Source: Solirubrobacterales bacterium (GTDB taxonomy: Bacteria > Actinomycetota > Thermoleophilia > Solirubrobacterales > 70-9). From it: a stretch of DNA of 58,127 nt. Each line of letters opens with the position of its first letter. Positions within the stretch are counted from its first letter, which is position 1. Position numbers and translations under genes: made by a program. Shown here piece by piece: positions 31,273 through 47,848 of the stretch. The notes below the pieces were generated by a model. The model did not search any database, was not told the origin of the DNA, and was given only the letters and a program-made list of their open reading frames with translations. Location of the stretch: positions 1 to 58,127 of the forward strand of contig JBAQZI010000147.1 in the NCBI GenBank assembly GCA_049790835.1. The letters run 5' to 3'.

Positions 31273-31872
31273 CTATCGCGGCTCGAGCCCGTCGCAGATC
31301 GTCGTCACCACAAGTTCCTTGGCCTGGTCGAAGTCCGTGTCGGAGGCGGGGATGACGTCGAAGATCCAGCCCGAGAGCAGCTGCTCGATGGCGCCATAGA
31401 AGGACATCGAGGCGAACATCGGCGCGACGTCGTCGCGGAAGGCGCCCGCCTTCTGCCCGTCCTCGACGATCTTGGCGATCGACTGGTAGGCGCGGCGGAT
31501 CTCCGGCAGGTGAGTGCGCCCGAAGGAGTTGGCGGCGCGGGTGACCTCGACGATGATCACCTTCATCAGTTCCGGGTCGTGGCGGTAGGAGTCGACGATG
31601 AAGGCCGCCACCGCGGCCATCTTCTCGCGCGGCGTCCCCCCCGTCCGGTCGGTCTCGTCGATCGCGCTGAGCAGCAACGACCAGCGCTCGACGAAGAGCT
31701 CGTTCAGCACCTCGTCCTTGGAGCGGAAGTAGTGGTAGACGAGCCCGTAGGCGACGCCGGCCTCGTCGGCGATGTCGGAGACCCGGGTCGCGTGGAAGCC
31801 CTGGCGGGCGAAGACGCGGATCGCCGCGTCGAGGATCTGGCGGCGCTTGTCGACCGGTGGAGCCTTCGCCAT
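31273..31872 (-). CDS. TetR-family transcriptional regulator
   Basis: Internal start MAKAPPVDKRRQILDAAIRVFARQGFHATRVSDIADEAGVAYGLVYHYFRSK (classic TetR HTH). TGATG overlap with the upstream gene. Confidence 0.85.
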   Translation of the reverse strand: MAKAPPVDKRRQILDAAIRVFARQGFHATRVSDIADEAGVAYGLVYHYFRSKDEVLNELFVERWSLLLSAIDETDRTGGTPREKMAAVAAFIVDSYRHDPELMKVIIVEVTRAANSFGRTHLPEIRRAYQSIAKIVEDGQKAGAFRDDVAPMFASMSFYGAIEQLLSGWIFDVIPASDTDFDQAKELVVTTICDGLEPR

Positions 31873-32705
31873 CAGGCTCGCGCCTCCGCCAGCTGTGGCC
31901 AGGTGTAGGCGCGGGGGCGGCGGTTGACCAGTGAGGGCAGCTCCTCGCGGACGCGATCCTGCGCCGCCAGGTCGAGCTCGGCGGCGACGAAGCACTCCTC
32001 CTCGGGCGCCAGCGCCAGCACCGTCCCCCAGGGATCGACGATCGCCGAGTGGCCGAAGGAGTTGAAGTGTGGGGCCGCCGCGCCGACCTGATTGGGCGCC
32101 AGTACGAAGGCCTGGTTCTCGATCGCCCGTGCCCGCAGCAGCACCTCCCAGTGATCGCGGCCGGTGGCCGCGGTGAAGGCGGAGGGCACGGTGAGGATGC
32201 GGGCGCCGCGCAGGGCGAGGATGCGGAAGAGCTCCGGGAAGCGCAGGTCGTAGCAGACGCTGAGGCCGGCGACGAGCTCGCCGACCGGGGCGGTGACGAT
32301 CTCCTGGCCCGGCTGCTCGTGCTCGGACTCGCGGTAGGAGACGCCGCCGGCGTCGACGTCGAACATGTGGATCTTGCGATAGACGGCGAGGTCCTCGCCC
32401 CCGGGGCCGATCAGGACCGAGGTGTTCGAGGCGAGCTCGGCCTCGCCACGCTCGGCGATGCTGCCGGCGAGCAGGTGGATCCCGAGATCGCGCGCCCAGG
32501 CACGGGCGGCGCTGAGGCTGGGCCCGTCGAGCCCCTCCGCCCCGGCCACCAGCTCCTCCCCCGCCGCCAGCAGGTTCCACTTCTCCGGCAGCGCGACGAG
32601 CTCGGCGCCGTCAGCGGCAGCGGCGCGCACGAGGCGCTCGGCCACGGCGAGGTTCCGGGCCTTGTCTGCGCTCGAGTTGAGCTGTACCGCGGCTGCTCGC
32701 AACAA
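31872..32705 (-). CDS. carbon-nitrogen hydrolase (nitrilase superfamily, Nit1/Nit2-like amidase)
   Basis: LPEKW, YRKIHMFD and SVCYDLRFPELFR (catalytic E-K-C). The start is probably TTG 32705/32702 after GGAGGA. The track start is 32744. Confidence 0.8.
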   Translation of the reverse strand: MLRAAAVQLNSSADKARNLAVAERLVRAAAADGAELVALPEKWNLLAAGEELVAGAEGLDGPSLSAARAWARDLGIHLLAGSIAERGEAELASNTSVLIGPGGEDLAVYRKIHMFDVDAGGVSYRESEHEQPGQEIVTAPVGELVAGLSVCYDLRFPELFRILALRGARILTVPSAFTAATGRDHWEVLLRARAIENQAFVLAPNQVGAAAPHFNSFGHSAIVDPWGTVLALAPEEECFVAAELDLAAQDRVREELPSLVNRRPRAYTWPQLAEARA

Positions 32706-32730
32706 CTTCCTCCAAGGTCGGACGCTGGCT

Positions 32731-32746
32731 GATTGACCAGTCAATC
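32731..32746. promoter_or_regulatory. palindrome GATTGAC-CA-GTCAATC (candidate TetR operator of the nitrilase-TetR operon)
   Basis: Perfect 7-nt arms about 25 nt upstream of the likely nitrilase start. Confidence 0.4.
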
Positions 32747-32799: not shown

Positions 32800-32846
32800 T
32801 TGCGGCAGTCCTTTGGGCCGTATAGCGACCGAAAGGACTGCCGCAA
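32800..32846. promoter_or_regulatory. 47-nt hairpin TTGCGGCAGTCCTTT-N17-AAAGGACTGCCGCAA in the divergent intergenic region
   Basis: Perfect 15-nt arms (32800-32814 and 32832-32846), upstream of the cyclase GTG 32878. Confidence 0.6.
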
Positions 32847-32877
32847 CCCGGGAAAAGACCGGCGTAAGCTAGATCGG

Positions 32878-35800
32878 GTGAGTCCGACGACGAGGGACGA
32901 TGCCGAGCGCAAGCAGGTAACGGTGCTGTTCGCCGACGTCAGCGGCTCGATGGACCTGGCGGAGCAGCAGGACCCAGAGGAGTGGCGCAAGATCATGCAA
33001 CGCTTCTTCTCGATCCTGGCCGACGCCGTGGCCAAGTTCGAGGGCACCGTCGACAAGTTCACCGGCGACGGGATCATGGCCGTCTTCGGGGCGCCGATCG
33101 CCCACGAGGACCACGCGCGGCGCGCCTGCTACGCCGCCCTGCAGATGCTCGACGACGTCTCCGACTACGCGGCCGAGCTGCGGCGCGGGCCGGGGCTCAA
33201 CTTCTCCACCCGGATCGGGATCAACTCCGGCGAGGTGGTCGCCGGGGCGATCGGCGAGAAGCGCGAGGGCGACTACACGGCGATCGGCCACACCGTCGGC
33301 CTGGCGCAGCGGATGGAGGCGCTGGCCGAGCCCGGCAAGGCCTACGTGACCGAGCACACGGCCGAGCTCGCCGGCGGCTTCCTCGACCTCGATGACCTCG
33401 GCGAGTTCGAGATCAAAGGGGCGAGCCGCCCGGTCAGGGTCTTCGAGCTGGCCGGAGTCGGGCAGCCGCGCTCACGACTCGATCTCTCGCGCGAGCGCGG
33501 CTTCTCCAGCTTCGTCGGCCGGGCCGAGGAGGTGGCGGCCCTGAAAGCGGCACTCGACGACGCGCGGGCGGGCAAGGGCGGTGCCGTCGGCCTGGTGGCC
33601 GAACCGGGCGTCGGCAAGAGCCGGCTCTGCCTCGAGTTCACGCAGCGCTGCCGCGCGGAGGGGCTCGAGGTCCTCGAGGCGCAGGCGCAGGCGCACGGAA
33701 CGTCGATCCCCTTCATGCCGGTGCTGCAGATGCTGCGGGCCTTCTTCGGGATCGGCGAGCGCGACCCCGAGCAGCTGGCGCGGGAGAAGATCGCCGGCCG
33801 GTCGCTGCTGCTGGATCCCAGCTTTGCCGAGGACCTGCCGTTGCTTTTCGACTTCCTCGGCGTGCCCGACCCCGAGCGGCCGGTGGCGCAGATGAGCCCG
33901 GACGCGCGGCAGCGGGCGCTGGGGCGAGTCGTCTGCCGGCTCACCAACGCCCCCAGCCGCCGCAAGACGCTGGTCCTGCTGATCGAGGACCTGCACTGGA
34001 TCGACGAGGGCAGCAACGCGATGCTTTCCGACCTCGTCGACGCGATCGAGGGCACCAACACGCTGGCGGTGGTCAACTTCCGGCCCGAGTACACGCCGCC
34101 CTGGCAGAGCTCGAAGGCCTACCGCGAGCTCCCCCTCGAACCGCTCGGGCGCGAGGACACGCGCGACCTGCTCCGCGATTTGGCCGGCGAGGACCCATCC
34201 CTGGACGGCCTCGACGAGGCGATCCACGAACGCAGCCAGGGCAACCCGTTCTTCATCGAGGAGATCGTGCGAGAGCTCGACGAGGCCGGCTACCTCGAGG
34301 GCGAGCGCGGGGCCTACCGCCTGGCGCGACCGATCGAGGGCGCGCGGGTGCCGGTCACGGTGCAGGCCGTCCTCGCCGCCCGCATCGACCGTCTCGACCC
34401 GGCCGCGAAGCAGCTGCTGCAGGTCGCCTCGGTGGTCGGCAAGGAGATCAGCGGTCGGGCGCTGGGGATGACCGCCGGGCTCGACCGCGAGCGGATCGAC
34501 CCGGTGCTCTGCGAGCTGATCGAGGCGGGCTTCCTCTACGAAGCCGAGCTCTACCCGGAGCGGGTGCTCGCCTTCCGCCATCCGCTGACCCGCGAGGTCG
34601 CCTACGGCACCCAGCTCGCCGACGGCCGTTCGGCGACCCACGCGGCGGCGGCACGGGCGCTGATCGAGCTCGAACCCGACCGCCACGACGAGCTGGCGGC
34701 GCTGATCGCCCACCACATGGAGGAGGGCGGCGAAACCCTGGAAGCGGCGCGCTGGTCGGCGCGCGCCGCCTACTGGACCGGCAGCAGCCGGCCGGGCGAC
34801 GCGATGCGACTCTGGCGGCGGGTGATGGAGCTGAGCGCACGGCTCGAGCAGGACGAGGAGGCGACGGCGCTGGCGGTGATGTCGCGGCTGCTGCAGCTCG
34901 ACTTCGCCTGGCGCCTGGGAATGGACGGCGACGAGGAAGCTCGGCTGACCGCGGAGGCCGAGGAGATCGCGACGCGGACCGGCGACCTGCGCTCGCTGGC
35001 GCTGCTGCGGATGGCGACCTCGGCCAGGCCGGGGATGCCGCACCAGGGCGAGACCTGGCTCGCCGCGGTGGCAGAGACGAACCGCCTTGCCGACGAATCG
35101 GGTGACCTCCACCTGCGGATCGCGATCCGCGCGGCCGGCTCCTACGCGTACCTCTGCGTCGCCGACTTCGACGGCTTCGAACGGGCGCTGGACCAGGTGA
35201 TCGAGCTCTGCGGCAGCGACCGCCGCGCCGGGGCCGGGATCGTGATCGGCAACCCGCTCGCCTGGGCGATCATGGGCAAGGGCGTGGCCCGGCGCGAGCG
35301 TGGCAGGCTCGAGGAGGCCGAAGAGCTGTTCGACGCGGCATTGCGAATCGCCTCCGAGGAGGGGGATCCGGAGATCGAGAGCTGGACCCGCAGCAACCAG
35401 TCGCTGATGCTGGCAATGCGGGGCGACACCGAGGCGGGGATCGCCCTGGCGCGGCGCAACTGCGAGCTGACCGAACGCCTCGGCGACGTCTTCTCCCGCA
35501 GCCTCGCCCTCTCCAACGTCGGCGCCACGCAGCTCCTCGCCGGCGACCACGAGTCGGCGCTGGAATCGCTGCAGGAGTCGGAGCGGGTCTACCGGGCGGC
35601 GATCGACGGCGGCGACGAGATGGAGTGCTGGCGGGCGGCCCTGCGCGCCGAAGCACTGGCCGGGGTCGGTCGCGCCGAGGAGGCGCTCGACCTTGCCGCC
35701 TGGGCCGCCGACCTCGCCCGCGAGCGCGGCATGCTGTGGTCGCTGCCCCTGACGCTGCGCGCGCTCGCCCTCGCGCTCGACGCGAACGACCGCGAAGGCG

Positions 35801-35910
35801 CCCCCGAGGCGCTCGACGAGGGCGCGGCGGTTGCCGAGCGGACCGGGGCGATGACCAGCCTTGAGGGGATCGAGGCAACCCGGCAGCTGATCGGCGCCGG
35901 CGCCCGCTAG
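32878..35910 (+). CDS. class III adenylate/guanylate cyclase fused to a STAND/AAA ATPase and a TPR-like helical repeat domain
   Basis: VTVLFADVSGSM..FTGDGIMAVFGAP..GINSGEVVAG is the cyclase domain. Walker A EPGVGKSRL and LLIEDLHWID mark the NTPase. A helical repeat C-terminus of about 450 aa follows, with no LuxR HTH. Confidence 0.85.
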   Translation: MSPTTRDDAERKQVTVLFADVSGSMDLAEQQDPEEWRKIMQRFFSILADAVAKFEGTVDKFTGDGIMAVFGAPIAHEDHARRACYAALQMLDDVSDYAAELRRGPGLNFSTRIGINSGEVVAGAIGEKREGDYTAIGHTVGLAQRMEALAEPGKAYVTEHTAELAGGFLDLDDLGEFEIKGASRPVRVFELAGVGQPRSRLDLSRERGFSSFVGRAEEVAALKAALDDARAGKGGAVGLVAEPGVGKSRLCLEFTQRCRAEGLEVLEAQAQAHGTSIPFMPVLQMLRAFFGIGERDPEQLAREKIAGRSLLLDPSFAEDLPLLFDFLGVPDPERPVAQMSPDARQRALGRVVCRLTNAPSRRKTLVLLIEDLHWIDEGSNAMLSDLVDAIEGTNTLAVVNFRPEYTPPWQSSKAYRELPLEPLGREDTRDLLRDLAGEDPSLDGLDEAIHERSQGNPFFIEEIVRELDEAGYLEGERGAYRLARPIEGARVPVTVQAVLAARIDRLDPAAKQLLQVASVVGKEISGRALGMTAGLDRERIDPVLCELIEAGFLYEAELYPERVLAFRHPLTREVAYGTQLADGRSATHAAAARALIELEPDRHDELAALIAHHMEEGGETLEAARWSARAAYWTGSSRPGDAMRLWRRVMELSARLEQDEEATALAVMSRLLQLDFAWRLGMDGDEEARLTAEAEEIATRTGDLRSLALLRMATSARPGMPHQGETWLAAVAETNRLADESGDLHLRIAIRAAGSYAYLCVADFDGFERALDQVIELCGSDRRAGAGIVIGNPLAWAIMGKGVARRERGRLEEAEELFDAALRIASEEGDPEIESWTRSNQSLMLAMRGDTEAGIALARRNCELTERLGDVFSRSLALSNVGATQLLAGDHESALESLQESERVYRAAIDGGDEMECWRAALRAEALAGVGRAEEALDLAAWAADLARERGMLWSLPLTLRALALALDANDREGAPEALDEGAAVAERTGAMTSLEGIEATRQLIGAGAR

Positions 35911-36650
35911 CGCCGGCTGTCGCGCTGGCGCTCGAGCTCGGCCACCATCAGCTTGGTGTGCAGCGCCGCGATCAGGTCCTTGAGCGGCTGGGCTCCGGCT
36001 TCGAGCATCTCGACCACGCGCTCGGGCGAGACCTCGCCGGCCAGCCGGGTCATCACCATGTCGACCTCCTGGTGGACCAGGGCCTCGAGCGCCTCCTTGT
36101 AACGCAGGGTGTCGTAGACGGTGAAGCCGATCTGCTCGTCGTAGCCACCGGCGCGGAAGCGGCTGATCGCCTCGATGATGGTGACGTCGGAAGGCGAGTA
36201 GCCGCGGCTGTTCGGGGTCAGGATCTCCAGCTCGGCGAGGCGGTCGAGGGCCTCCTGGGGGACGCCGTAGCGCTTGCGTACCTCGCTGGCGCTGGTTCGC
36301 GAACGTTCGCCGGCCAACGCGCGGTCGAGGATGCGGTCCTCCAGCTCGAGCAGTGCCCTGGCTCGCTCCGGGTCCTCGTCGAGCACCGACTTGATCGCCT
36401 TCAGCGGCATGAAGCGCTCCTCCTGCAGGCGCTTGATCAGCTTGATCCGGTCGATGAACTCGGGTGGGTAATAGGCCATGTTGCGGCTGGTCTTGACCGG
36501 CTCCGGCAGCAGCCCCTCGCGCAGGTAATGCTTGATCGTCGGCGCCGGCACCCCAGACGCCTCGGCCAGCTCCCCCATCCGCAGCAGCTCCTGGGGTCGA
36601 TGGGCCGAAATGTCGACCCTGGCTGGACTTATCGGCCCGTCGGCGGTCAT
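35907..36650 (-). CDS. MerR-family transcriptional regulator (last gene of the acyl-CoA operon)
   Basis: LLRMGELAEASGVPAPTIKHYLREGLLP is a MerR HTH. The N-terminal 24 aa preceding it are largely encoded by a 51-nt palindromic repeat. ATGA overlap with the CoA-transferase stop. Confidence 0.8.
   Translation of the reverse strand: MTADGPISPARVDISAHRPQELLRMGELAEASGVPAPTIKHYLREGLLPEPVKTSRNMAYYPPEFIDRIKLIKRLQEERFMPLKAIKSVLDEDPERARALLELEDRILDRALAGERSRTSASEVRKRYGVPQEALDRLAELEILTPNSRGYSPSDVTIIEAISRFRAGGYDEQIGFTVYDTLRYKEALEALVHQEVDMVMTRLAGEVSPERVVEMLEAGAQPLKDLIAALHTKLMVAELERQRDSRR
36595..36645. repeat. 51-nt nested palindromic repeat, copy 2
   Basis: GGTCGATGGGCCG AAATGTCGACCCTGGCTGGACTTAT CGGCCCGTCGGCG. 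Same length, arms and inner ATGTCG..CGAC core as the copies at 509 and 51525. Confidence 0.8.
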
Positions 36651-37909
36651 GCGCGGAACTCGGTTGGCTTGGCGCCCGACTGGGGGCCGGCGGCGGCGCC
36701 GGAGGCGAGCATCGCTTCGATCTCCGCGGGCGCGTAGCCGGCCTCGCGCAGGACCTCCTCGGTGTGCTCGCCGAGGGCGGGCGCCGGACGGGTCGGGTCG
36801 GCGGGAGTGCGGCTGAGCTTGACCGGGGCGCCGAGCTGGCGCACCGTGCCCAGCTCCGGCTGCTCGATCTCCACCACCATCTCACGCGCCCGCACCAGCT
36901 CCGAGTCGAGTGCCTCGTCGAGGTCGAGAACCGGCTCGATGCAGCAGTCGTGCTCGTCGTTGAAGGCGAGCCACTCGGCGCGCGTGCGGGAGCGGAAGAC
37001 GTCGGCGACATCGCGCCAGGCATCGGAGCCCGGCGGCTCGAACTGCTTCTCGATCAGGTCCGGCCTCCCCACCCCATTACAGAGAGCAGCCCAGAACTTC
37101 GGCTCCAGGGCGCCACAGCTGACCCAGCCGTCGGCGACTTCATAAGGGAGGTAGCAGAGCAGCCCGCCGGCCAACTGCTGCTCGCCGCGCTTCGGCACCT
37201 CGCCGTCGCAGAAGTAGCGGCCAGCGACCATCGCCAGCCAGGAGAGGGCGCCGTCGGCCATCGAGACGTCGACCATCTGGCCCTCGCCGGAGCGGCGGCG
37301 CTCGTGCAGCGCCGCCATCACCCCGAAGGCTGCCATCAGGGCGCCGCCGCCGAGGTCGGCGATCTGGCCGGCCGACTGCACCGGCGGCCCGTCCTTGGCC
37401 CCGGTCAGCCCCAGCAGCCCGACCAGGCCGAGGTAGTTCATGTCGTGCCCGGCGCGCTGCGCGTAGGGACCGTCCTGGCCGTAGCCGGTGATCGCGCAGA
37501 AGACGATCGCCGGGTTCGCCTCGCGCATGCGCTCGTAGCCAACCCCAAGCCGGTCGAGGACGCCGGGGCGGAAGCCGTCGAGGACGACGTCGTGGCGCTC
37601 GACCAGGCGCAGCAGCGCCTCCCTCCCGGCCTCGCCCTTGAGGTCGAGGCGGACCGAGCGCTTGCCGCGGTTGAGCGCCAGGTAGAGCGAGGAGCGGGTG
37701 CCGAGCGCCTGCTGCTCGTCGCTGCCGTAGTACGGCGGCGCCCAGCGGATGTAGTCGCCCATGCCGGTGTCCTCGACCTTCAGTACCTCGGCGCCGAGGT
37801 CGGCCAAGAGCAGCGAGCAGAAGCCGCCCGGCAAGAGCCGGGTCAGGTCGAGGACCTTGACGTCGCTAAGCGGGAGGCTGGCCCCGGGCTGGGGTCGCTT
37901 GGCACTCAT
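36647..37909 (-). CDS. family III CoA-transferase (CaiB/BaiF/alpha-methylacyl-CoA racemase family)
   Basis: LSDVKVLDLTRLLPGGFCSLLLADLGAEVLKVE and GHDMNY. Internal ATG 37909 overlaps the OsmC stop (ATGA). Confidence 0.85.
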   Translation of the reverse strand: MSAKRPQPGASLPLSDVKVLDLTRLLPGGFCSLLLADLGAEVLKVEDTGMGDYIRWAPPYYGSDEQQALGTRSSLYLALNRGKRSVRLDLKGEAGREALLRLVERHDVVLDGFRPGVLDRLGVGYERMREANPAIVFCAITGYGQDGPYAQRAGHDMNYLGLVGLLGLTGAKDGPPVQSAGQIADLGGGALMAAFGVMAALHERRRSGEGQMVDVSMADGALSWLAMVAGRYFCDGEVPKRGEQQLAGGLLCYLPYEVADGWVSCGALEPKFWAALCNGVGRPDLIEKQFEPPGSDAWRDVADVFRSRTRAEWLAFNDEHDCCIEPVLDLDEALDSELVRAREMVVEIEQPELGTVRQLGAPVKLSRTPADPTRPAPALGEHTEEVLREAGYAPAEIEAMLASGAAAGPQSGAKPTEFRA

Positions 37910-38325
37910 TGGGGCTCGACCGCCACCGGGAAATCCACTGACCTGGCGATGAAGCAACGCTCGTGAGCGCCGTGGTGGAACGCCTCGATCGCCTCCGGGG
38001 CGGGGGGATCCCCCGCCCAGCGGACACGCGGCCGCAGCGTCGCCGCGGTGAACTTCTTGCCGTCGAGCACTCCATCGGCGTCGTCTTCATAAGAGGCGAC
38101 CTCGAAGCCCTTTTTCCTCGCAAGCGCCAGGAACCAAAGCATGTGGCAGCTGGCGAGGGCGCCGATCAGCAGCGCCTCCGGATTCGACTTCGAGTCGTCG
38201 CCGCCGAACTCGATCGCCGACGAGCTGGGCAGCGACTGGGCGCCGAGGAGAACGTCGTGGGCGCGAACGTCCTCCCCCTCGCCGCCATTCCAGGAGACAC
38301 CGGCGCGGTGGATCGACGTCGCCAT
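37906..38325 (-). CDS. OsmC/Ohr-family peroxiredoxin-like protein
   Basis: NPEALLIGALASCHML...AHERCFIARS (two conserved Cys). Confidence 0.75.
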   Translation of the reverse strand: MATSIHRAGVSWNGGEGEDVRAHDVLLGAQSLPSSSAIEFGGDDSKSNPEALLIGALASCHMLWFLALARKKGFEVASYEDDADGVLDGKKFTAATLRPRVRWAGDPPAPEAIEAFHHGAHERCFIARSVDFPVAVEPQ

Positions 38326-38329
38326 CTGC

Positions 38330-39217
38330 CTAGGCCTCTGCCCGCCTCGGAACTCCCAGCAGCTCGCGAGCCTCGGCCACGGTGGCGGCGCGGCGGCCGA
38401 CGTCCTCGGCCATCTGCCGCGCCTTGGCGATCAGATCGCCGTTGGAGCGGCACATCTCCCCGTTCGGCAGGTAGAGGTTGTCCTCGACCCCGGCGCGGAC
38501 GTTGCCGCCCAGCACCAGCGCCGCGCCGAGCAGTTTCCACTGGTCGCGGGAGATGCCGATCGCCTGCCACTGGTTGGGGCCCTCCGGCCCGCCGGGCAGC
38601 TGGTCCGACATCAGGGTGACGTTGCGGGGAGTCGGCCGGATGCCGCCGGTGACGCCCATCACCAGCGAGACCTGCAGCGGCTCCTCGAGCAGGCCCATGT
38701 CGATCAGCGGGTCGAGGTTGGCGACGTGCCCGGCATCGAAGCACTCGTTCTCGGGCTTGATCCCCAGCTCCCGCATCGCCGTCAGGAACTCGACGATCGT
38801 GTCGAAGCTGTTCTCGAAGACGGTTTTGAAGACGAAGTCCTTGCGTCGTTTGGAGTACTTGGCGTAGTTCATCGAGCTCATGTTCAGCGCCGCCACATCG
38901 GGCTTCAGCGCCCGCAGGTACTCGATCCGCTTCTCGATCGGGATCCCGATCGCGCCGGTCGAGTAGTTGACGATGACGTCGCCGACCTCGCCCAGAATCG
39001 CCTCGGTGATCGCCTGGAAGTCCTCGATCTCATAGGACGGCGTGCCGTCGGGGGTGCGGGCGTGGATGTGGATCTGCGAGGCGCCCTCGTCGACGGCGCG
39101 CCGAGCCTCGGCCGCGTACTCCTCCGGCGTGTAGGGGATCGCCGGGCACTGATCGCGATTGGCGATCACGCCCGAGATCGAGCAGCTGATGACGACGGGG
39201 TCCTCGAAGCGACTCAT
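38330..39217 (-). CDS. beta-keto acid cleavage enzyme (BKACE / 3-keto-5-aminohexanoate cleavage enzyme family, DUF849)
   Basis: PVVISCSISGV, PYTPEEYAAEARRAVDEGASQIHIHAR and ENECFDAGH are hallmark BKACE TIM-barrel motifs. Confidence 0.8.
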   Translation of the reverse strand: MSRFEDPVVISCSISGVIANRDQCPAIPYTPEEYAAEARRAVDEGASQIHIHARTPDGTPSYEIEDFQAITEAILGEVGDVIVNYSTGAIGIPIEKRIEYLRALKPDVAALNMSSMNYAKYSKRRKDFVFKTVFENSFDTIVEFLTAMRELGIKPENECFDAGHVANLDPLIDMGLLEEPLQVSLVMGVTGGIRPTPRNVTLMSDQLPGGPEGPNQWQAIGISRDQWKLLGAALVLGGNVRAGVEDNLYLPNGEMCRSNGDLIAKARQMAEDVGRRAATVAEARELLGVPRRAEA

Positions 39218-39275
39218 CCCTCCCCCTTCCGTGGTTCTTTTTCCGCGAAATACGTGGGTATCGAACCGCGCAACC

Positions 39276-40886
39276 TCATACCGGCATCACGCCGTGGCGT
39301 TTGCGCGGCTTACGGACCTGCTTGTCCTTCGCCATTCGCAGCGCCTTGACGATCGTCGGGCGGGTCTCACGCGGGTCGATGATGTCGTCGATCACGGCGT
39401 TGCCGGCGGCGATGTAGGGGTCGATCTGCTCGCGCACCGCGTTCAGCATCGCCTCGCGGGTGGCCTCTGGGTCGTCGGAGGCCTCGATCGCCGAGCGGCC
39501 GATGATTTCGACCGCTCCCTCGGCTCCCATCACCGAGATCTCGGCCCCGGGCCAGGCGACGATCAGGTCCGGCTCGTACGCTTTTCCGCACATCACGTAG
39601 TAGCCGGCGCCGTAGGCCTTGCGAACGATCACCGTCACCTTCGGCACCGTCGCGCGGCTGACCGCGTAGAGCATCTTCGCCCCGTGGCGGATGATCCCGG
39701 TGTGCTCCACCTTGGAGCCGACCATGAAGCCGGGCACGTCCTGGAGGAAGACCAGGGGGATGTTGAAGGCGTCGCAGAGGTTGATGAAGCGAGCCGCCTT
39801 GTCGGCCGAGTCGTTGTCGAGGATCCCGGCCAGCTGCTTGGGCTGGTTGGCGACGATCCCGACCGGCTGGCCGCCGAAGCGGGCGAAGCAGGTGATCAGC
39901 GTCTTGGCGAATTTCGGCTTGAGGTCGAACCACTCGCCGTCGTCGACGATCTCGCCGATCACGTCGTACATGTCATACGGCTGGCGCGAGGAGTCGGGGA
40001 CGATCTCCATCAGCTTCTCCGACATGCGGTCGTCGAGGTCGTCGGTCTCTATAACCGGCGGCTTCTGCTCGCAGTTGGCGGGGAAGTAGGAGAGGTACTG
40101 CTTGATCGCGGCGATGCAGGCCTCGTCGTCGGGCACCTCGAGGTCCCCCACTCCCGATTTGCGGCAGTGCACCTTGGCGCCGCCGAGGTCCTCCATCGAG
40201 ATGTCCTCGCCGGTCACGGCTTTGACCAGGTGTGGCCCGGCCAGGGCCATCGCCCCCTGGCCGGAGACCATCGGCACGAAGTCGGCGAGGGCGGGGATGT
40301 AGGCGGTGCCGGCCGCGCAGGGCCCCATCATCGCCGCCACCATCGGGACGACGCCCGACATTTCGACCTCCTCGCGGAAGAGGAAGCCGGAGCCGGCGAA
40401 GAGCGACCCGGTCGCCTCCTGGATGCGGGCGCCGGCGGAGTCGAGCAGCCAGACGAACGGCATCCGCTTCGAGAGCGCCATCTCGCGCAGGCGGGTGACC
40501 TTGAGCTCGCCGGTCATCCCCATCGAGCCGGCCATCACGGTGAAGTCATAGGCGGCGATGCAGGTGGGGCGGCCGTCGACGTCGCCCCAGCCGGTGATGA
40601 CGCCGTCGGCGGGAGCCTCGACCCCGTCCATCGCCCGCTGGGCGAAGTGGGGGCGGCCCTGGATGCCGAGCTCGACGAAGGTGCCCGCGTCGACCAGTAG
40701 GTCGAGCCGCTCGCGGGCGGTCAGCTTGCCGCGGTCGTGCTGCTTGGCGATCTTCTCCTCGCCGCCGCCCAGTTTCGCCTTGGCGCGGCGCTGGTGCAGC
40801 TGCTCGTTCAGCTCCGCCAGCGTGGCGGTGCCGGGAAGTAGGTGCTTCGACTCTTGCTCGGTGCTGGCCACTAACGCCCTTTCCAT
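39276..40886 (-). CDS. acyl-CoA carboxylase carboxyltransferase (beta) subunit (MccB/PccB-like)
   Basis: GKLTARERLDLLVDAGTFVELG, AAYDFTVMAGSMG, GPCAAGTAYIPAL, GIVANQP and VIVRKAYGAGYYVM. Internal start ATG 40886 (or GTG 40871). Confidence 0.85.
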   Translation of the reverse strand: MERALVASTEQESKHLLPGTATLAELNEQLHQRRAKAKLGGGEEKIAKQHDRGKLTARERLDLLVDAGTFVELGIQGRPHFAQRAMDGVEAPADGVITGWGDVDGRPTCIAAYDFTVMAGSMGMTGELKVTRLREMALSKRMPFVWLLDSAGARIQEATGSLFAGSGFLFREEVEMSGVVPMVAAMMGPCAAGTAYIPALADFVPMVSGQGAMALAGPHLVKAVTGEDISMEDLGGAKVHCRKSGVGDLEVPDDEACIAAIKQYLSYFPANCEQKPPVIETDDLDDRMSEKLMEIVPDSSRQPYDMYDVIGEIVDDGEWFDLKPKFAKTLITCFARFGGQPVGIVANQPKQLAGILDNDSADKAARFINLCDAFNIPLVFLQDVPGFMVGSKVEHTGIIRHGAKMLYAVSRATVPKVTVIVRKAYGAGYYVMCGKAYEPDLIVAWPGAEISVMGAEGAVEIIGRSAIEASDDPEATREAMLNAVREQIDPYIAAGNAVIDDIIDPRETRPTIVKALRMAKDKQVRKPRKRHGVMPV

Positions 40887-41662
40887 TGCGGGTCGCGCTT
40901 CTCGAAGAAGGCGGTGACGCCCTCGACGATGTCCTCGGTGCTGAAGGTCAGGGAGAGCTGGGAGCGGAGGAACTCGAGCGCGTCGTCGAGCGCCATGTCC
41001 TGCTGGCGGTACATCGCGTCGTGACCGAGCCGCATCAGCACCGGGCTCTTCGCGGCCAGCTTGCCGGCCCACTCGGCGACCGCGGCATCGAACTCGCCCA
41101 CCGGGACGACCTTGTTGGCAAGCCCGTACTCGACCGCTTCTGGAGCGCTGAGCCGCTCGCCCAGCAGCATCATCTCGTTGACCTTCTTGCGCGGGACGTT
41201 GCGGTAGATGATCGACATGATCATGTAGGGGAAGGCGCCGACGTTGATCTCCGGCGTGCCGAAGGTCGCGCCCTCTTTGGCGATCACCAGGTCGCAGGAG
41301 AGCGCCAGCCCCATCCCCCCCGCCAGCACGTGGCCGTTGGCGGCGCAGAGCGAGGGCTTGCCGAGCCGCGGCATCAACCGGAAGAACTCGAGGAAGAGGT
41401 CGGAGGCGAAGTGTTTCTGGACCAGCGAGGCGTCGGCGGCGAATCCGCCGAGGTCGGCGCCGGCGCAGAAGACCTTGTCGCCGGCCCCGGTGAGGACGAC
41501 CGCGCGGACCTCCTCCGAGGCCTTGGCCGCCTTCATCGCGTCGACCAGCTCGGCCAGCATCTGCCCGGAGAGCATGTTGCGCTTCTCCGGGTTGTTCAGC
41601 GTCACCGTGGCGACGCCGTCGGCGACCTCGTAGGCGACCAGCTCGTAGCTCCCTTCGCTCAT
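40871..41662 (-). CDS. enoyl-CoA hydratase/isomerase (crotonase family)
   Basis: VVLTGAGDKVFCAGADL and ANGHVLAGGMGLALSCDL. Confidence 0.85.
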   Translation of the reverse strand: MSEGSYELVAYEVADGVATVTLNNPEKRNMLSGQMLAELVDAMKAAKASEEVRAVVLTGAGDKVFCAGADLGGFAADASLVQKHFASDLFLEFFRLMPRLGKPSLCAANGHVLAGGMGLALSCDLVIAKEGATFGTPEINVGAFPYMIMSIIYRNVPRKKVNEMMLLGERLSAPEAVEYGLANKVVPVGEFDAAVAEWAGKLAAKSPVLMRLGHDAMYRQQDMALDDALEFLRSQLSLTFSTEDIVEGVTAFFEKRDPQWKGR

Positions 41663-41721
41663 CGAGCGGCACCATAGCCGACTTTCGCTGAAAGTAGGAA
41701 GTGCTACTGTCCACGCCGCAT

Positions 41722-41771
41722 GGCGTGTCTGACTTTAGGCCCCCTATATGGCCGGAAAAGTCAGACACGCC
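41722..41771. promoter_or_regulatory. perfect 15-nt inverted repeat GGCGTGTCTGACTTT-N20-AAAGTCAGACACGCC between the divergent crotonase and ACAD genes
   Basis: Seen directly. The left arm also pairs with an upstream CACGCC (41712-41717). A second palindrome, GACTTTCGCTGAAAGT, lies at 41680-41695. Confidence 0.7.
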
Positions 41772-41810
41772 TTGATTGGGACACCGACCCGCGAACGAGG
41801 AGAGACACCA

Positions 41811-43025
41811 GTGGCAACCGCGACCAACGGCTCCAGCGTCATCAAGCCCGACCATGCAGCCGGGCGCAAGCACTTCATCTTCAGCCAGGAGCACGAAGAC
41901 CTGCGCGAGTCGATGGAGTCATGGGTGAAGAAGGAGCTGTGGCCCCACCGCAACGAGTGGGAGGACACCTACTGGCCGACCTCGGCAATGCAGCGGGCGG
42001 GCGAGCTCGGCTTCCTCGGCCTCTGCTTCCCGGAGGAGTACGGCGGCCAGGGCGGCGACTACTTCTACTCGCTGGTCCGCGCCGAGTGCATGAGCTACTC
42101 CGGCTCCGGCGGCACCAACATGGGCTTCGCCGTCCAGACCGACATGGTCCTGCCCCCGATCCACCTGCTCGGCACCGAGGAGCAGAAGGAGAAGTACCTC
42201 AAACCGGGCCTCAAGGGCGAGAAGATCGGCAGCCTCGGGATCACCGAGCCCGGCGCCGGCTCCGACGTCGCCGGCATCCGCACCACGGCGATCCGCGACG
42301 GCGACGAATACGTCATCAACGGCTCCAAGACCTTCATCACCAACGGCCCGCGGGCCGACTTCATCGTCCTCGTCTGCAAGACCGACCCCGACGAGCGCCA
42401 CGCCGGCATCACCCTCTTCGTCGTCGACCTGCGCGACGAGAAGGGCGAGACGGTCCCCGGCTTCACCGTCTCGGCCGAGCTGGAGAAGATGGGGATGCAC
42501 GCCTCCGACACCGGCGAGCTCGCCTTCGAAGACGTCCGCGTCCCGGCCAGCGCCGTGCTCGGCGAGGTCGGCAAAGGCTTCTACCACATCGCCTGGGAGC
42601 TCCAGGGCGAGCGCCTGGTCGCCGCCGCCGGCTCCCACGCCGGCTGCGAACGGATGATCGAGAAGACCCTCGAGTACGCCAAGGAGCGCGAAGCCTTCGG
42701 CCGCCCGATCGGCAAGTTCCAGGCGATCCGCCACAAGTTCGCCGAGATGGCGACCAAGACCGAGGCGGCGAAGCAGTTCACCTACGCGACCGCCTGGCGC
42801 TTCGGCAACGGCGAGTACCCGGTGCGCGAGATCACGATGGCCAAGCTCTTCGCCTCGCGGGTCGGCTGCGAGGTCGCCGACGAGTGCATCCAGATCCTCG
42901 GCGGCTACGGCTACATGAAGGAGTACGAGATCGAGCGCGCCTACCGCGACGTCCGCCTCAACCGCATCGGCGCCGGCACCGACGAGGTCATGCTCGACGT
43001 GATCGGCAAGAGCTACGGGCTCTAG
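41811..43025 (+). CDS. acyl-CoA dehydrogenase
   Basis: ACAD motifs GITEPGAGSD, TFITNG and IQILGGYGYMKEYEIERAYRD. GTG 41811 after GAGGAGAG is preferred to the track ATG 41748, which lies in the loop of the 15-nt inverted repeat. Confidence 0.85.
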   Translation: MATATNGSSVIKPDHAAGRKHFIFSQEHEDLRESMESWVKKELWPHRNEWEDTYWPTSAMQRAGELGFLGLCFPEEYGGQGGDYFYSLVRAECMSYSGSGGTNMGFAVQTDMVLPPIHLLGTEEQKEKYLKPGLKGEKIGSLGITEPGAGSDVAGIRTTAIRDGDEYVINGSKTFITNGPRADFIVLVCKTDPDERHAGITLFVVDLRDEKGETVPGFTVSAELEKMGMHASDTGELAFEDVRVPASAVLGEVGKGFYHIAWELQGERLVAAAGSHAGCERMIEKTLEYAKEREAFGRPIGKFQAIRHKFAEMATKTEAAKQFTYATAWRFGNGEYPVREITMAKLFASRVGCEVADECIQILGGYGYMKEYEIERAYRDVRLNRIGAGTDEVMLDVIGKSYGL

Positions 43026-44204
43026 TTGACGGTCGTCAAGGACAGCGGCGCGCGGGCGGTCCTCCCCCCCTTCGGCGATGAGCACGAGGAGCTGCGGGAG
43101 ACCGTCAGCCGCTTCGTCACGAAGGAGATCGCGCCGCACGTCGACGAGTGGGAGGAGGCGCGGGAATTCCCGCGTGAGCTCTACCGGCGCTGCGCCGAGC
43201 TCGGCTTCCTCGGGCTGAAGTTCCCGGAGGAGTACGGCGGCCAGGGCGGCACCCACCTGCACGACGCGATCTGGGTCGAAGAGCTGGCCCGCTCGGGTGG
43301 CTCCGGCGGCGTCGCCGCCGGGCTCAACGCCCACGCCTCGATCGCGATGCCGCCGATCTTCAATTTCGGCACCGAGGAGCAGAAGCAGCGCTGGCTGACT
43401 CCTGGCATCGCCGGCGAGAAGATCGGCGCCCTCGGCATCACCGAGCCCGGCGCCGGCTCCGACGTCGCCGGCATCACCACCACGGCAAAGCGGATCGACG
43501 GCGGCTACCTCGTCAACGGCGCCAAGACCTTCATCACCAACGGCGTCCGCGCCGACTTCCTCGTCTGCGCCTGCAAGACGACCCAGGAGGGCGGCCACGG
43601 CGGCATCTCCTTCCTCGTCCTCGAGCGCGAGATGCCCGGCTACGAGGTGGCCGCGAAGCTGGAGAAGATGGGCTGGCACTCCTCCGACACGGGTGAGCTC
43701 GCCTTCACCGACGTCGAGGTGCCCGCCGCGAACCTGCTGGGCGAGGAGAACGGCGGCTTCAAGCTGATCATGGCCAACTTCGCCTGGGAGCGGCTGCTGA
43801 TGGCGATCGGCGCCGTCGGCGGCATGCGGCGCCTGATCGAGACCACCGTCGCCTACGCCAAGGAGCGCGAAGCCTTCGGCCGCCCGATCGGCAGGTTCCA
43901 GGCGATCCGCCACCACGTCGCCGAGATGGCGGTCAAGGCCGAGACCTCCCGCGCCCTCACCTACAACGCCCTGCGCCTCTTCCACAGCGGTCAGGAGTGC
44001 ATCCGCGACGTCAGCATGGCCAAGCTCGTCACCCAGCGCTCCCTGCTCGAGATCGCCGACGCCTCCCTGCAGATCCACGGCGGCTACGGCTACATGCGCG
44101 AGTACGGCATCGAGCGTGCCGTCCGCGACGCCCGCCTCGGCCCGATCGGCGGCGGCACCGACGAGGTGATGAAGGAGATCCTCGGCAAGCAGATGGGGCT
44201 CTGA
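43026..44204 (+). CDS. acyl-CoA dehydrogenase (second paralogue)
   Basis: GITEPGAGSDVAG, TFITNG and LQIHGGYGYMREYGIERAVRD. TTG start directly after the upstream stop. Confidence 0.85.
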   Translation: MTVVKDSGARAVLPPFGDEHEELRETVSRFVTKEIAPHVDEWEEAREFPRELYRRCAELGFLGLKFPEEYGGQGGTHLHDAIWVEELARSGGSGGVAAGLNAHASIAMPPIFNFGTEEQKQRWLTPGIAGEKIGALGITEPGAGSDVAGITTTAKRIDGGYLVNGAKTFITNGVRADFLVCACKTTQEGGHGGISFLVLEREMPGYEVAAKLEKMGWHSSDTGELAFTDVEVPAANLLGEENGGFKLIMANFAWERLLMAIGAVGGMRRLIETTVAYAKEREAFGRPIGRFQAIRHHVAEMAVKAETSRALTYNALRLFHSGQECIRDVSMAKLVTQRSLLEIADASLQIHGGYGYMREYGIERAVRDARLGPIGGGTDEVMKEILGKQMGL

Positions 44205-47017: not shown

Positions 47018-47848
47018 ATGGGACTTCTCGATGGGAAAGCGGCGATCGTCACGGGTTCCGCGCGGGGTATCGGGCGGGCGACCGCCGAGCTGTTCGCGGC
47101 CGAGGGCGCCAAGGTCCTGATCAACGATCTCGACGCCGACGTCGCCGAGCAGACCGCCGGTGAAATCGACGGCGAGACCGCTGTCTTCGCCGGCGACCTG
47201 ACCAAGACCGGCGCCGGCGACGAGCTCGTCGCCGCGGCCGTCGATGCCTTCGGCGCGGTCGACATCTGCGTCAACAACGCCGGCTACACCTGGGACGGCG
47301 TCGCCCACAAGATGAGCGACGAGCAGTTCCAGGCGATGCTCGACATCCACACCGTCGTCCCCTTCCGCGTCGCCCGAGCGCTCGCCCCCCACTGGCGCGA
47401 GGCTGCCAAGGCCGAGCGCGGCGAAGGCAAAGAGGTCTTCCGCAAGCTGATCAACATCTCCTCGACCTCGGGGACGATGGGCAACGCCGGCCAGGTCAAC
47501 TACTCGGCCGCCAAGATGGGCGTCGTCGGCGTCACCAAAACCCTCGCCAAGGAGTGGGGTCAGTTCAAGATCAACGTCAACGCGGTCGCCTTCGGCTTCG
47601 TCGACACCCGCCTCACCGCCGCCAAAGAGGAGGGCGGCGAGATGACCGCTCCCGGTGGCGAGAAGATCGAGCTCGGCATCCCCGAGCAGATGCGGGCGAT
47701 GGCCTCGGCGATCATCCCGGTCGGCCGCCCCGCCTCGCCCGAGGAGGCGTCCGGCCCGGTCCTCTTCCTCGCTTCGCCGCTGGCCAACTACGTGCACGGC
47801 CAGGTGCTCAACGTGACCGGCGGCATGTTCGGCGGGATGTACACCTGA
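47018..47848 (+). CDS. SDR-family oxidoreductase (FabG-like)
   Basis: TGSARGIG, NNAG and the S...YSAAK catalytic tetrad. Confidence 0.85.
   Translation: MGLLDGKAAIVTGSARGIGRATAELFAAEGAKVLINDLDADVAEQTAGEIDGETAVFAGDLTKTGAGDELVAAAVDAFGAVDICVNNAGYTWDGVAHKMSDEQFQAMLDIHTVVPFRVARALAPHWREAAKAERGEGKEVFRKLINISSTSGTMGNAGQVNYSAAKMGVVGVTKTLAKEWGQFKINVNAVAFGFVDTRLTAAKEEGGEMTAPGGEKIELGIPEQMRAMASAIIPVGRPASPEEASGPVLFLASPLANYVHGQVLNVTGGMFGGMYT

Follow-up and report, generated by a model that had tools for sequence, protein, structure and literature searches.

The window considered here is the whole of a 58,127-nucleotide stretch of DNA (contig C147) from a Solirubrobacterales bacterium whose assembly comprises 2.64 Mb in 232 contigs, is 89% complete and has a G+C content of ~69%. 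Between positions 35907 and 44204 the window carries a minus-strand operon and two divergently transcribed acyl-CoA dehydrogenase (ACAD) genes. An acyl-CoA carboxyltransferase (CT), a crotonase and an enzyme for the cleavage of beta-keto acids (BKACE) encoded at this locus belong to a conserved gene set that may form a catabolic module dependent on carboxylation. An earlier note on this DNA had named eight genes here, every one of which is recovered by Pfam. They are given below together with a short conserved element of the divergent control region.

35907..36650, minus strand: MerR-family regulator, 247 aa as called (Pfam MerR_1, 86.5 bits, E 1e-24)
36647..37909, minus strand: family III CoA-transferase-fold protein (Pfam CoA_transf_3, 374 bits, E 1e-111)
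37906..38325, minus strand: OsmC/Ohr-like protein (Pfam OsmC, 57.8 bits, E 1e-15)
38330..39217, minus strand: BKACE, beta-keto acid cleavage enzyme (Pfam BKACE, 299.7 bits, E 2e-89)
39276..40871, minus strand: CT, acyl-CoA carboxyltransferase, beta subunit (Pfam Carboxyl_trans, 562 bits, E 1e-168)
40871..41662, minus strand: ECH1, crotonase fold (Pfam ECH_1, 205 bits, E 2e-60)
41690..41711, no strand: conserved element of the ECH1/ACAD1 divergent control region, from a six-locus alignment
41811..43025, plus strand: ACAD1, acyl-CoA dehydrogenase (all three ACAD Pfam domains)
43026..44204, plus strand: ACAD2, acyl-CoA dehydrogenase and paralogue of ACAD1 (all three ACAD Pfam domains)

The minus-strand genes had been described as a tight operon, and their start and stop codons do overlap or almost touch throughout. 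The GTG start codon of the CT gene overlaps the ECH1 stop codon, and these two genes are predicted to be translationally coupled. Only 4 nt separate the OsmC and BKACE genes, whilst the ATG of the family III gene overlaps the OsmC stop codon (ATGA) and that of the MerR gene overlaps the stop codon of the gene upstream (ATGA). On the opposite strand, a conserved N-terminus and a ribosome-binding site indicate GTG 41811 as the start of ACAD1. Contigs from soil RNA libraries, 90-99% identical to this DNA, together span every part of the operon; as records of presence in soil metatranscriptome assemblies only, carrying neither transcript boundaries nor levels, they weakly suggest that the operon is expressed in relatives.

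The order ECH1-CT-BKACE-(family III)-MerR, with divergent ACAD1 and ACAD2, recurs at 16 loci from six families of the Solirubrobacterales, and an arrangement kept so widely is not due to chance. The family III gene is absent from two of these loci, MerR is the terminal gene of the operon in 15 of them and ACAD2 is kept beside ACAD1 through the order. BKACE, a single-copy gene in this genome, has orthologues in 39 of 41 related genomes and shows 63-94% identity within the order, as against 52-61% for its counterparts from other actinobacterial families. Within a phylum sample of 301 genomes, 46 encode a BKACE assigned to this clade (E <= 1e-60); three such genomes (G041, G087 and G127) are unpublished, and only this count depends on them. 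The wider family is large, with at least 7,998 proteins at E <= 1e-40 (of 8,000 candidates scored) and 594 relatives in species-representative genomes, and the best 120 homologues listed are near-identical soil sequences (91-96%).

Outside the order, where 16 loci were compared, ECH1, CT and BKACE remain linked at 12 and CT and BKACE at 14, despite unrelated insertions. The family III gene and MerR occur at none of these loci, and the ACAD pair at one only (L126). At 12 of these 16 loci the gene immediately after BKACE encodes a biotin carboxyl carrier protein (BCCP) of 71 aa with a perfect biotinylation motif, ESMKME, and in eight a second crotonase gene, ECH2, comes next after the BCCP; a metagenomic BKACE, 44% identical, even overlaps a 70-aa Biotin_lipoyl gene. 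The conserved core of the module therefore consists of ECH1, CT, BKACE, the small BCCP and ECH2, and the additions specific to the order are the two ACADs of isovaleryl-CoA dehydrogenase (IVD) type, a racemase-like protein (the family III protein), MerR and a CN-hydrolase. BKACE is a conserved member and not a passenger, being the most constant component of the module, retained at 44-94% identity on at least two very different GC backgrounds. Genes that intervene at individual loci were considered as further core members and rejected as variable insertions (a K+ channel, a hydrolase and two-component systems at distant loci; oxidoreductases in family f4).

Several isolated arrangements accompany this pattern. 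At L126 (G043:C5:260000-279900), outside the order, orthologues of ACAD1 and ACAD2 come immediately after BKACE, and the 10 kb around it hold no CT, ECH1 or BCCP, so that BKACE and the ACAD pair can evidently associate on their own. On the metagenome contigs L151 and L166 a gene for an ECH1-type crotonase overlaps that for BKACE (51-52% identical) beside serine-biosynthesis-like genes, and no CT or biotin carboxylase (BC) lies within 8 kb. These two contigs suggest that ECH1 and BKACE may be the tightest functional pair of the module. Of three distant BKACE representatives, one lies on a 2.3-kb contig too short to be informative, one showed only a TetR neighbour and the third is the metagenomic BKACE that overlaps a Biotin_lipoyl gene.

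The assignment of BKACE to the DUF849/Kce type of cleavage enzyme, made in the earlier note, is borne out by a full-length domain with intact catalytic residues. Residues H50, H52 and E245, which serve as Zn ligands, are conserved in 28 sequences, as are the base E158 and R241. In alignments to solved enzymes E158 and R241 correspond to E171 and R254 of BKACE15, in which the catalytic role of E171 has been shown by mutagenesis (PMC11961710). The position of the amine-binding Glu14 of Kce is taken by Ile18 in the window BKACE and is hydrophobic, as in 3lot and in BKACE15, an enzyme that accepts uncharged beta-keto acids (PMC11961710). Groups of the family that use negatively charged beta-keto acids are also known. 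Scores against the three NCBIfam equivalogs for Kce, triacetate and 3-oxoadipate enzymes (234.6, 208.8 and 186.8 bits) lie below the respective cut-offs (382, 430 and 350), and local alignments to solved members reach at most 186 bits. By these measures the window BKACE appears to fall outside the characterised isofunctional subfamilies.

The CT had been likened to the beta subunit of methylcrotonyl-CoA carboxylase (MCC), but comparison with the PDB by phmmer favours a different relationship. Chains of the PccB/12S/MmdA type score 480-515 bits (12S, 486; the best match, 1vrg from Thermotoga maritima, 515), compared with 341 for AccD1, 303-328 for MCC beta, 262 for the beta subunit of geranyl-CoA carboxylase (GCC) and 129 for GcdA; given 515 bits for the PccB type, the CT is not MccB-like. 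A control search found no BC in T. maritima. The specificity residue of PccB, Asp422 (S. coelicolor numbering), lies in a GGAYD motif, where the window CT has GAGYY, GGA being replaced by GAG. The motif YGAGY[YF]VM occurs in 29 of 29 orthologues, with Tyr or Phe invariant at the Asp422 position. A canonical PccB with the motif GGAYDVM, 46% identical to the window CT, is encoded on contig C76 of the same genome, and this, together with the invariant Tyr/Phe, marks the window CT as a separate PccB-like branch.

Both crotonases of the core are atypical. The roles of the two hydratase glutamates are known from published structures of rat enoyl-CoA hydratase (ECH) and AUH. In all 27 aligned orthologues of ECH1, Gly stands where rat ECH has Glu144 and the equivalent of Glu164 is retained (TPE[IV]), and the same one-glutamate signature is found at L151, L166 and a further metagenomic locus, L150. 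Enoyl-CoA isomerases and hydratase-lyases, HCHL for example, show such a pattern; to our knowledge, it is not that of methylglutaconyl-CoA hydratases, the type to which ECH1 had been compared, and with only one of the two glutamates kept that comparison does not stand. ECH2 is without the second glutamate in this genome and without either at distant loci. The methylmalonyl-CoA decarboxylase model ranks third among its NCBIfam matches, with a score of 181 bits that does not reach the cut-off of 257.

Genome-wide family searches found no BC, biotinyl domain or HMGL-like gene in the window, where the earlier note had also seen no BC, BCCP or HMG-CoA lyase; all matches to these families lie on other contigs. 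The alpha subunit sought elsewhere in the genome is present. The sole Biotin_carb_C match is on C207, where a 592-aa BC-BCCP fusion stands among unrelated neighbours, and Biotin_lipoyl matches are found on C76, C208, C227, C162, C207 and C70. The genome thus has one BC to five CT genes, and the complete genomes G010 and G032 of the order also encode a single BC. It is usual in actinobacteria for several beta subunits to be served by one alpha subunit, and with a single BC in the genome any ATP-dependent carboxylation of biotin must come from the C207 alpha subunit. The subunits that seem to be missing are encoded elsewhere, so their absence from the window is an effect of gene location and not of biology.

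On C227 a 70-aa stand-alone BCCP is followed by the ECH_1-domain gene ECH2 (G000:C227:15155-16178; L145:6156-7179). This BCCP is 52-60% identical to the cluster-linked BCCPs, and four of five complete relatives carry their small BCCP at a distance of 17-36 kb from BKACE. About 4 kb from the BCCP-ECH2 pair there is a gene for a biotin synthase (BioB-like, radical SAM plus BATS; L145:10541-11713). The clearest physical link to carboxylation is provided by L150, a 4.8-kb metagenome contig of 54% G+C on which BC, BCCP, ECH1 and BKACE are consecutive, the BC with all three of its domains and the BKACE 56% identical to that of the window; this gene order indicates that the module is an ATP-dependent carboxylase system. 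In the 30 actinobacterial clusters that were inspected, no BC was found at a distance of 10 kb or less. Nor was an OAD_beta membrane pump (PF03977) detected in the 89%-complete genome, a control search having found the Thermotoga and Bacteroides copies. Prediction of a complex between BKACE (28-row alignment) and the small BCCP (14 rows), run with no controls, gave a score of 0.00 and weighs neither way.

The sole HMGL-like match in the genome lies on C170 (G000:C170:863-3426; L146) and is an HMG-CoA lyase of 331 aa that passes the NF004283 cut-off (362 bits, cut-off 246), directly followed by a divergent CT, with a short-chain dehydrogenase/reductase (SDR) gene upstream at the contig end. This second CT, with the motif GAGLYAM, is 44% identical to that of the window. 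It was considered as a clear MccB and rejected on its PDB scores of 349-379 bits to PccB/MmdA-type chains, 317 to AccD1 and 284-298 to MCC beta, by which it appears to be another divergent branch, neither clearly PccB nor clearly MccB.

The family III protein was previously labelled a CaiB-type CoA-transferase; it has the His/Asp dyad of the MCR/Far racemases, and its gene is found only within this order. Its best PDB match is the Far racemase 2g04 (221 bits), ahead of SUGCT (203) and MCR (185). In HMMER alignments (2g04, 9i2t/1x74, SUGCT 9br6, 10uh) its AGHDMNY and ADLGGG motifs align with His126 and Asp156 of MCR, whereas SUGCT and formyl-CoA transferase have GYD and TD(L/I)(A/V)(T/A)G there, with Tyr at the His position. 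AGHDxNY is found in 14 of the 15 copies examined (the window and 14 orthologues). A C-terminal LGEHT stretch is transferase-like and aligns with SUGCT to residue 391, which makes a racemase more likely but not certain. The protein thus probably acts as a racemase or epimerase of 2-methylacyl-CoAs and not as a CoA-transferase.

The two ACADs are 53.5% identical (blastp). ACAD1 has GERL on helix G and IGAGT in place of YEGT, and the corresponding motifs of ACAD2 are WERL and IGGGT. Published work on IVD and on medium-chain acyl-CoA dehydrogenase (MCAD) places the IVD base at a helix-G Glu, with none at the MCAD Glu376 position, and from these motifs both ACADs are predicted to position their catalytic base as IVD does.

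Regulation of the locus can be addressed through the MerR gene and the divergent promoter. MerR gave only weak NCBIfam matches (FtsR, MerR and CueR), all below cut-off. Its helix-turn-helix (HTH) domain starts at residue 24, and the N-terminal 24 codons correspond to a 51-nt palindromic element (36595-36645) that aligns with a copy at 51525-51575; as this extension is encoded by the palindrome, the true start of MerR may be Met25. The element at 41690-41711 holds the dyad AGTAG-N6-CTACT and is the only conserved block in the ECH1/ACAD1 intergenic alignment of six loci. It occurs once in the 2.64-Mb assembly, even with 5 mismatches allowed, and is a candidate MerR operator. An assembly-wide search did not find it at the C227, C170 or C207 loci, and a motif unique in the assembly lends no support to a shared regulon. 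Between this block and the ACAD1 start lies an inverted repeat (41719-41774) with 18-nt arms, CATGGCGTGTCTGACTTT and AAAGTCAGACACGCCTTG, and a 20-nt loop. It was rejected as a conserved operator, since five related genomes lack it in the orthologous intergenic region, and as a copy of the 51-nt palindrome family, to which it aligns poorly; its absence from the orthologous regions points to a strain-specific hairpin insertion.

Two further genes of the window lie beyond the operon and the ACAD pair.

31872..32744, minus strand: CN-hydrolase, Nit1/amidase-like (Pfam CN_hydrolase, 197 bits)
47018..47848, plus strand: FabG/3-hydroxybutyrate-dehydrogenase-like SDR (Pfam adh_short; NCBIfam FabG-like below cut-off)

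The CN-hydrolase, which scores 180 bits, below cut-off, against the NCBIfam deaminated glutathione amidase model, is encoded downstream of MerR at all 16 loci of the order and directly adjoins it in several families. In the window the two are separated by a 1036-aa adenylate cyclase-AAA_16-TPR (STAND-type) gene (32800-35910), an insertion that is also present at one same-genus locus (L029). The SDR gene directly follows ACAD2 at L136 and is close to it at L037 and L041; it is loosely associated with the module and is a candidate supplier of the 3-oxo group. In family f4 an MDR/zinc-type dehydrogenase gene (L032:8359-9501) lies between CT and BKACE and a pyridine-nucleotide-disulphide oxidoreductase gene (L032:3578-4963) follows the ACADs; both may represent redox steps peculiar to this lineage within the same pathway. 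OsmC is present at only two (L029 and L030) of the three same-genus loci examined, and contigs from the RNA libraries of relatives run from 37876 straight to 38343 without it. It is a genus-specific insertion outside the conserved module.

The reading that we prefer, with a probability of about 0.45, is that the locus is the Solirubrobacterales version of a widespread carboxylation-dependent catabolic module resembling the Liu and Atu systems, and that this module probably breaks down methyl-branched fatty acyl-CoAs. From the enzymes encoded we infer which substrate is used, at which position it is carboxylated and in what sequence the steps proceed. The ACADs would desaturate a methyl-branched acyl-CoA and the carboxylase would add CO2 to the enoyl- or acyl-CoA. 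ECH1 would then act on the carboxylated thioester, either hydrating it, perhaps with an accompanying retro-aldol cleavage, or isomerising it, to give eventually a free beta-keto acid with an uncharged side chain. From this and acetyl-CoA, BKACE would form acetoacetate and a shortened acyl-CoA, taking the place of HMG-CoA lyase, keto-acid activation and thiolysis. Cleavage of a 3-hydroxy-3-alkylglutaryl-CoA in the manner of HMG-CoA lyase yields acetyl-CoA and a beta-keto acid, and BKACE could therefore close the sequence with no loss of CoA. It is conceivable, though on balance doubtful, that the constant set represents a hitherto undescribed route of C-C cleavage, in which a crotonase serves as hydratase-lyase or isomerase for the carboxylated thioester and BKACE reuses the acetyl-CoA set free, giving acetoacetate and a shortened acyl-CoA.

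The likeness to Liu claimed in the earlier note survives in part. MerR, the IVD-type ACADs, the coupling of CT to a crotonase and the lack of a lyase and an alpha subunit in the cluster stand, but MccB, the two-Glu hydratase and the CaiB-type transferase do not. Of six features of Liu operons, four are missing (an MccB-clade beta subunit, an adjacent alpha subunit, a two-glutamate hydratase and an HMG-CoA lyase), and an IVD-type ACAD is present; with regard to a LiuR-type regulator, the locus offers a MerR HTH and a conserved dyad in the divergent promoter.

Several observations weigh against this Liu/Atu-like interpretation. Its main weakness is that the CT groups with the alpha-carboxylating PccB, 12S and MmdA and not with the gamma-carboxylating MccB and GccB, and Liu/Atu chemistry needs enzymes of the latter type. 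With the first hydratase glutamate absent from ECH1, it is uncertain that this enzyme performs a simple hydration. The racemase-like gene suits 2-methyl-branched beta-oxidation equally with removal of a 3-methyl branch. The small BCCP is without a dedicated BC in the genomes of the order searched, and a literature search found no description of BKACE in a biotin-carboxylase context. The lyase-CT pair on C170 may be the real leucine pathway, which would leave the module another substrate, and the assignment of pathway steps to the module enzymes is itself inferred from sequence.

Four other explanations can be set against this background. It is unlikely, in our judgement, that the locus serves beta-oxidation of 2-methyl-branched or odd-chain acids, in which the racemase would feed (2S)-methylacyl-CoA to the ACADs, the CT would carboxylate the propionyl-CoA set free, or some other short saturated acyl-CoA, at C2 and BKACE would be an independent entry that converts free beta-keto acids into acyl-CoAs for the ACADs. 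Such a scheme accommodates the closeness of the CT to PccB, 12S and MmdA, the MCR/Far dyad of the family III protein, the branched-chain (IVD) type of the ACADs and a BKACE chemistry that gives acyl-CoA and acetoacetate. However, a canonical PccB is already encoded on C76 and the window CT carries the invariant Tyr/Phe, whilst the tight coupling of ECH1 to CT and of BKACE to BCCP is left unexplained. Moreover, outside the order the racemase and the ACADs are absent, apart from the ACAD pair kept at L126, whilst ECH1, CT, BKACE, BCCP and ECH2 persist, and the conserved chemistry consequently needs neither. A dicarboxylic pathway is distinctly improbable. Here BKACE would cleave an acid of the 3-oxoglutarate type to acetoacetate and malonyl- or methylmalonyl-CoA, which CT/BCCP and an ECH2 resembling methylmalonyl-CoA decarboxylase would interconvert or decarboxylate. 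The relationship of the CT to the (methyl)malonyl-CoA enzymes 12S and MmdA fits this, as do the 181 bits of ECH2 to the decarboxylase model, its glutamate pattern unlike that of a hydratase and the BKACE groups for negatively charged substrates. Yet ECH2 does not reach the curated cut-off (257), a hydrophobic residue fills the pocket where Kce has Glu14, as in enzymes for uncharged substrates, a route through dicarboxylates is at odds with the racemase and the IVD-type ACADs of this order, and no dehydrogenase that makes 3-oxoglutarate is conserved in the module.

The absence of BC within 10 kb of the 30 actinobacterial clusters raises the further thought that the CT and the small BCCP work independently of BC, as a soluble decarboxylase or as a transcarboxylase resembling 12S plus 1.3S, in which BKACE, a zinc TIM-barrel enzyme, might stand in for the 5S subunit that binds the keto acid. 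The BCCP is indeed a minimal 70-aa stand-alone domain directly coupled to BKACE, and the closest solved CT chains include 12S and decarboxylase-type enzymes, the best coming from T. maritima. We nonetheless give this little credence: at L150 an ECH1 and a BKACE belonging to the same clade have a full BC and a BCCP directly upstream, no 5S-type subunit is found, the sole HMGL-like protein passing the HMG-CoA lyase cut-off, and BKACE retains all the residues for the acetyl-CoA-dependent reaction. The dedicated BCCP, the full BC beside related modules and the failure to find OAD_beta in the 89%-complete genome likewise make the decarboxylase role that the earlier note considered for a lone CT unlikely. 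Scarcely credible, finally, is an ordinary leucine/isovalerate (Liu) operon with its alpha subunit and lyase elsewhere and with BKACE, the family III protein and OsmC as passengers. Both the BC-BCCP alpha subunit (C207) and an HMG-CoA lyase (C170) do exist, as the earlier note had allowed, OsmC is indeed a passenger and the ACADs are IVD-like. But BKACE, as the most constant member of the module, is not the unrelated passenger that was coupled with such a finding, the CT is not MccB-like, ECH1 lacks one hydratase glutamate in all orthologues and the C170 lyase has another CT as its partner.

Should the constant set indeed encode such an undescribed route of C-C cleavage, methylglutaconyl-CoA hydratase, HMG-CoA lyase and keto-acid activation would have been replaced by non-homologous means in abundant soil actinobacteria, the Solirubrobacterales and their relatives being abundant in the soil metagenomes sampled. 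Solving the module would assign function to a large BKACE clade, a new CT branch and two atypical crotonases, and could bring to light a novel route by which methyl branches are taken off fatty or isoprenoid acids, or by which beta-keto acids are processed. It would also supply natural parts, a PCC-type (propionyl-CoA carboxylase-type) carboxylase and BKACE, of the sort that have to be put together manually in today's synthetic CO2-fixation cycles (PMC11961710). New here or more sharply defined are the His/Asp dyad of racemase type, the one-glutamate pattern of ECH1, the Tyr found at the specificity position of PccB and the conserved intergenic motif that is unique in the assembly. Two gene labels, MccB-like and CaiB-type transferase, need correcting.

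Amongst known systems, the Liu and Atu clusters of Pseudomonas (liuRABCDE, atuCDEF) and the actinobacterial AccD1-AccA1 clusters share with the window a MerR regulator, one or more IVD-type ACADs and a carboxylase beta subunit coupled to a crotonase, with acetoacetate as the expected end product. They differ in that the window beta subunit is PccB-like, the alpha subunit lies outside the cluster and a separate 70-aa BCCP is present; the window crotonase has one Glu and a second non-canonical crotonase belongs to the set, and BKACE is the constant partner in a cluster with no HMG-CoA lyase. PccB/AccD5, 12S and MmdA are the closest relatives of the CT and have the same full two-domain Carboxyl_trans fold, the oxyanion-hole loop being present in the CT but altered. 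In contrast to PccB, the window CT has Tyr/Phe for Asp422 and GAG for GGA, and the genome encodes its canonical PccB elsewhere. We know of no case in which ECH1, BKACE, the small BCCP or ECH2 are genomic partners of PCC. From the transcarboxylase 12S/5S/1.3S, a 12S-like CT and a 1.3S-like BCCP are present, whereas no 5S-type protein (HMGL-like plus PYC_OADA) was found in the genome.

The BKACE family, including Kce, BKACE15 of Paracoccus denitrificans and the dehydrocarnitine, 3-oxoadipate and triacetate members, has the same full-length domain, Zn ligands, Glu and Arg as the window enzyme, for which the same reaction is expected, namely beta-keto acid plus acetyl-CoA to acetoacetate plus acyl-CoA; the window BKACE differs in lying below all three equivalog cut-offs and in lacking the Glu14 of Kce. 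MCR/Far of Mycobacterium tuberculosis and AMACR share with the window family III protein the fold, the His126/Asp156-type dyad and the AGHDxNY and xDxGGG motifs, but the window protein is ~60 residues longer, with the transferase-like LGEHT C-terminus. The synthetic CORE cycle uses a PCC-type carboxylase, BKACE and a CoA-transferase step in series, the BKACE step converting malonate semialdehyde and acetyl-CoA to acetoacetate and formyl-CoA (PMC11961710). Although CORE is engineered and needs a malonyl-CoA reductase, which the module lacks, and although the family III protein of the window is racemase-like and restricted to the order, the enzyme types are the same as those of the window module, and CORE is the only place found in which these types are combined.

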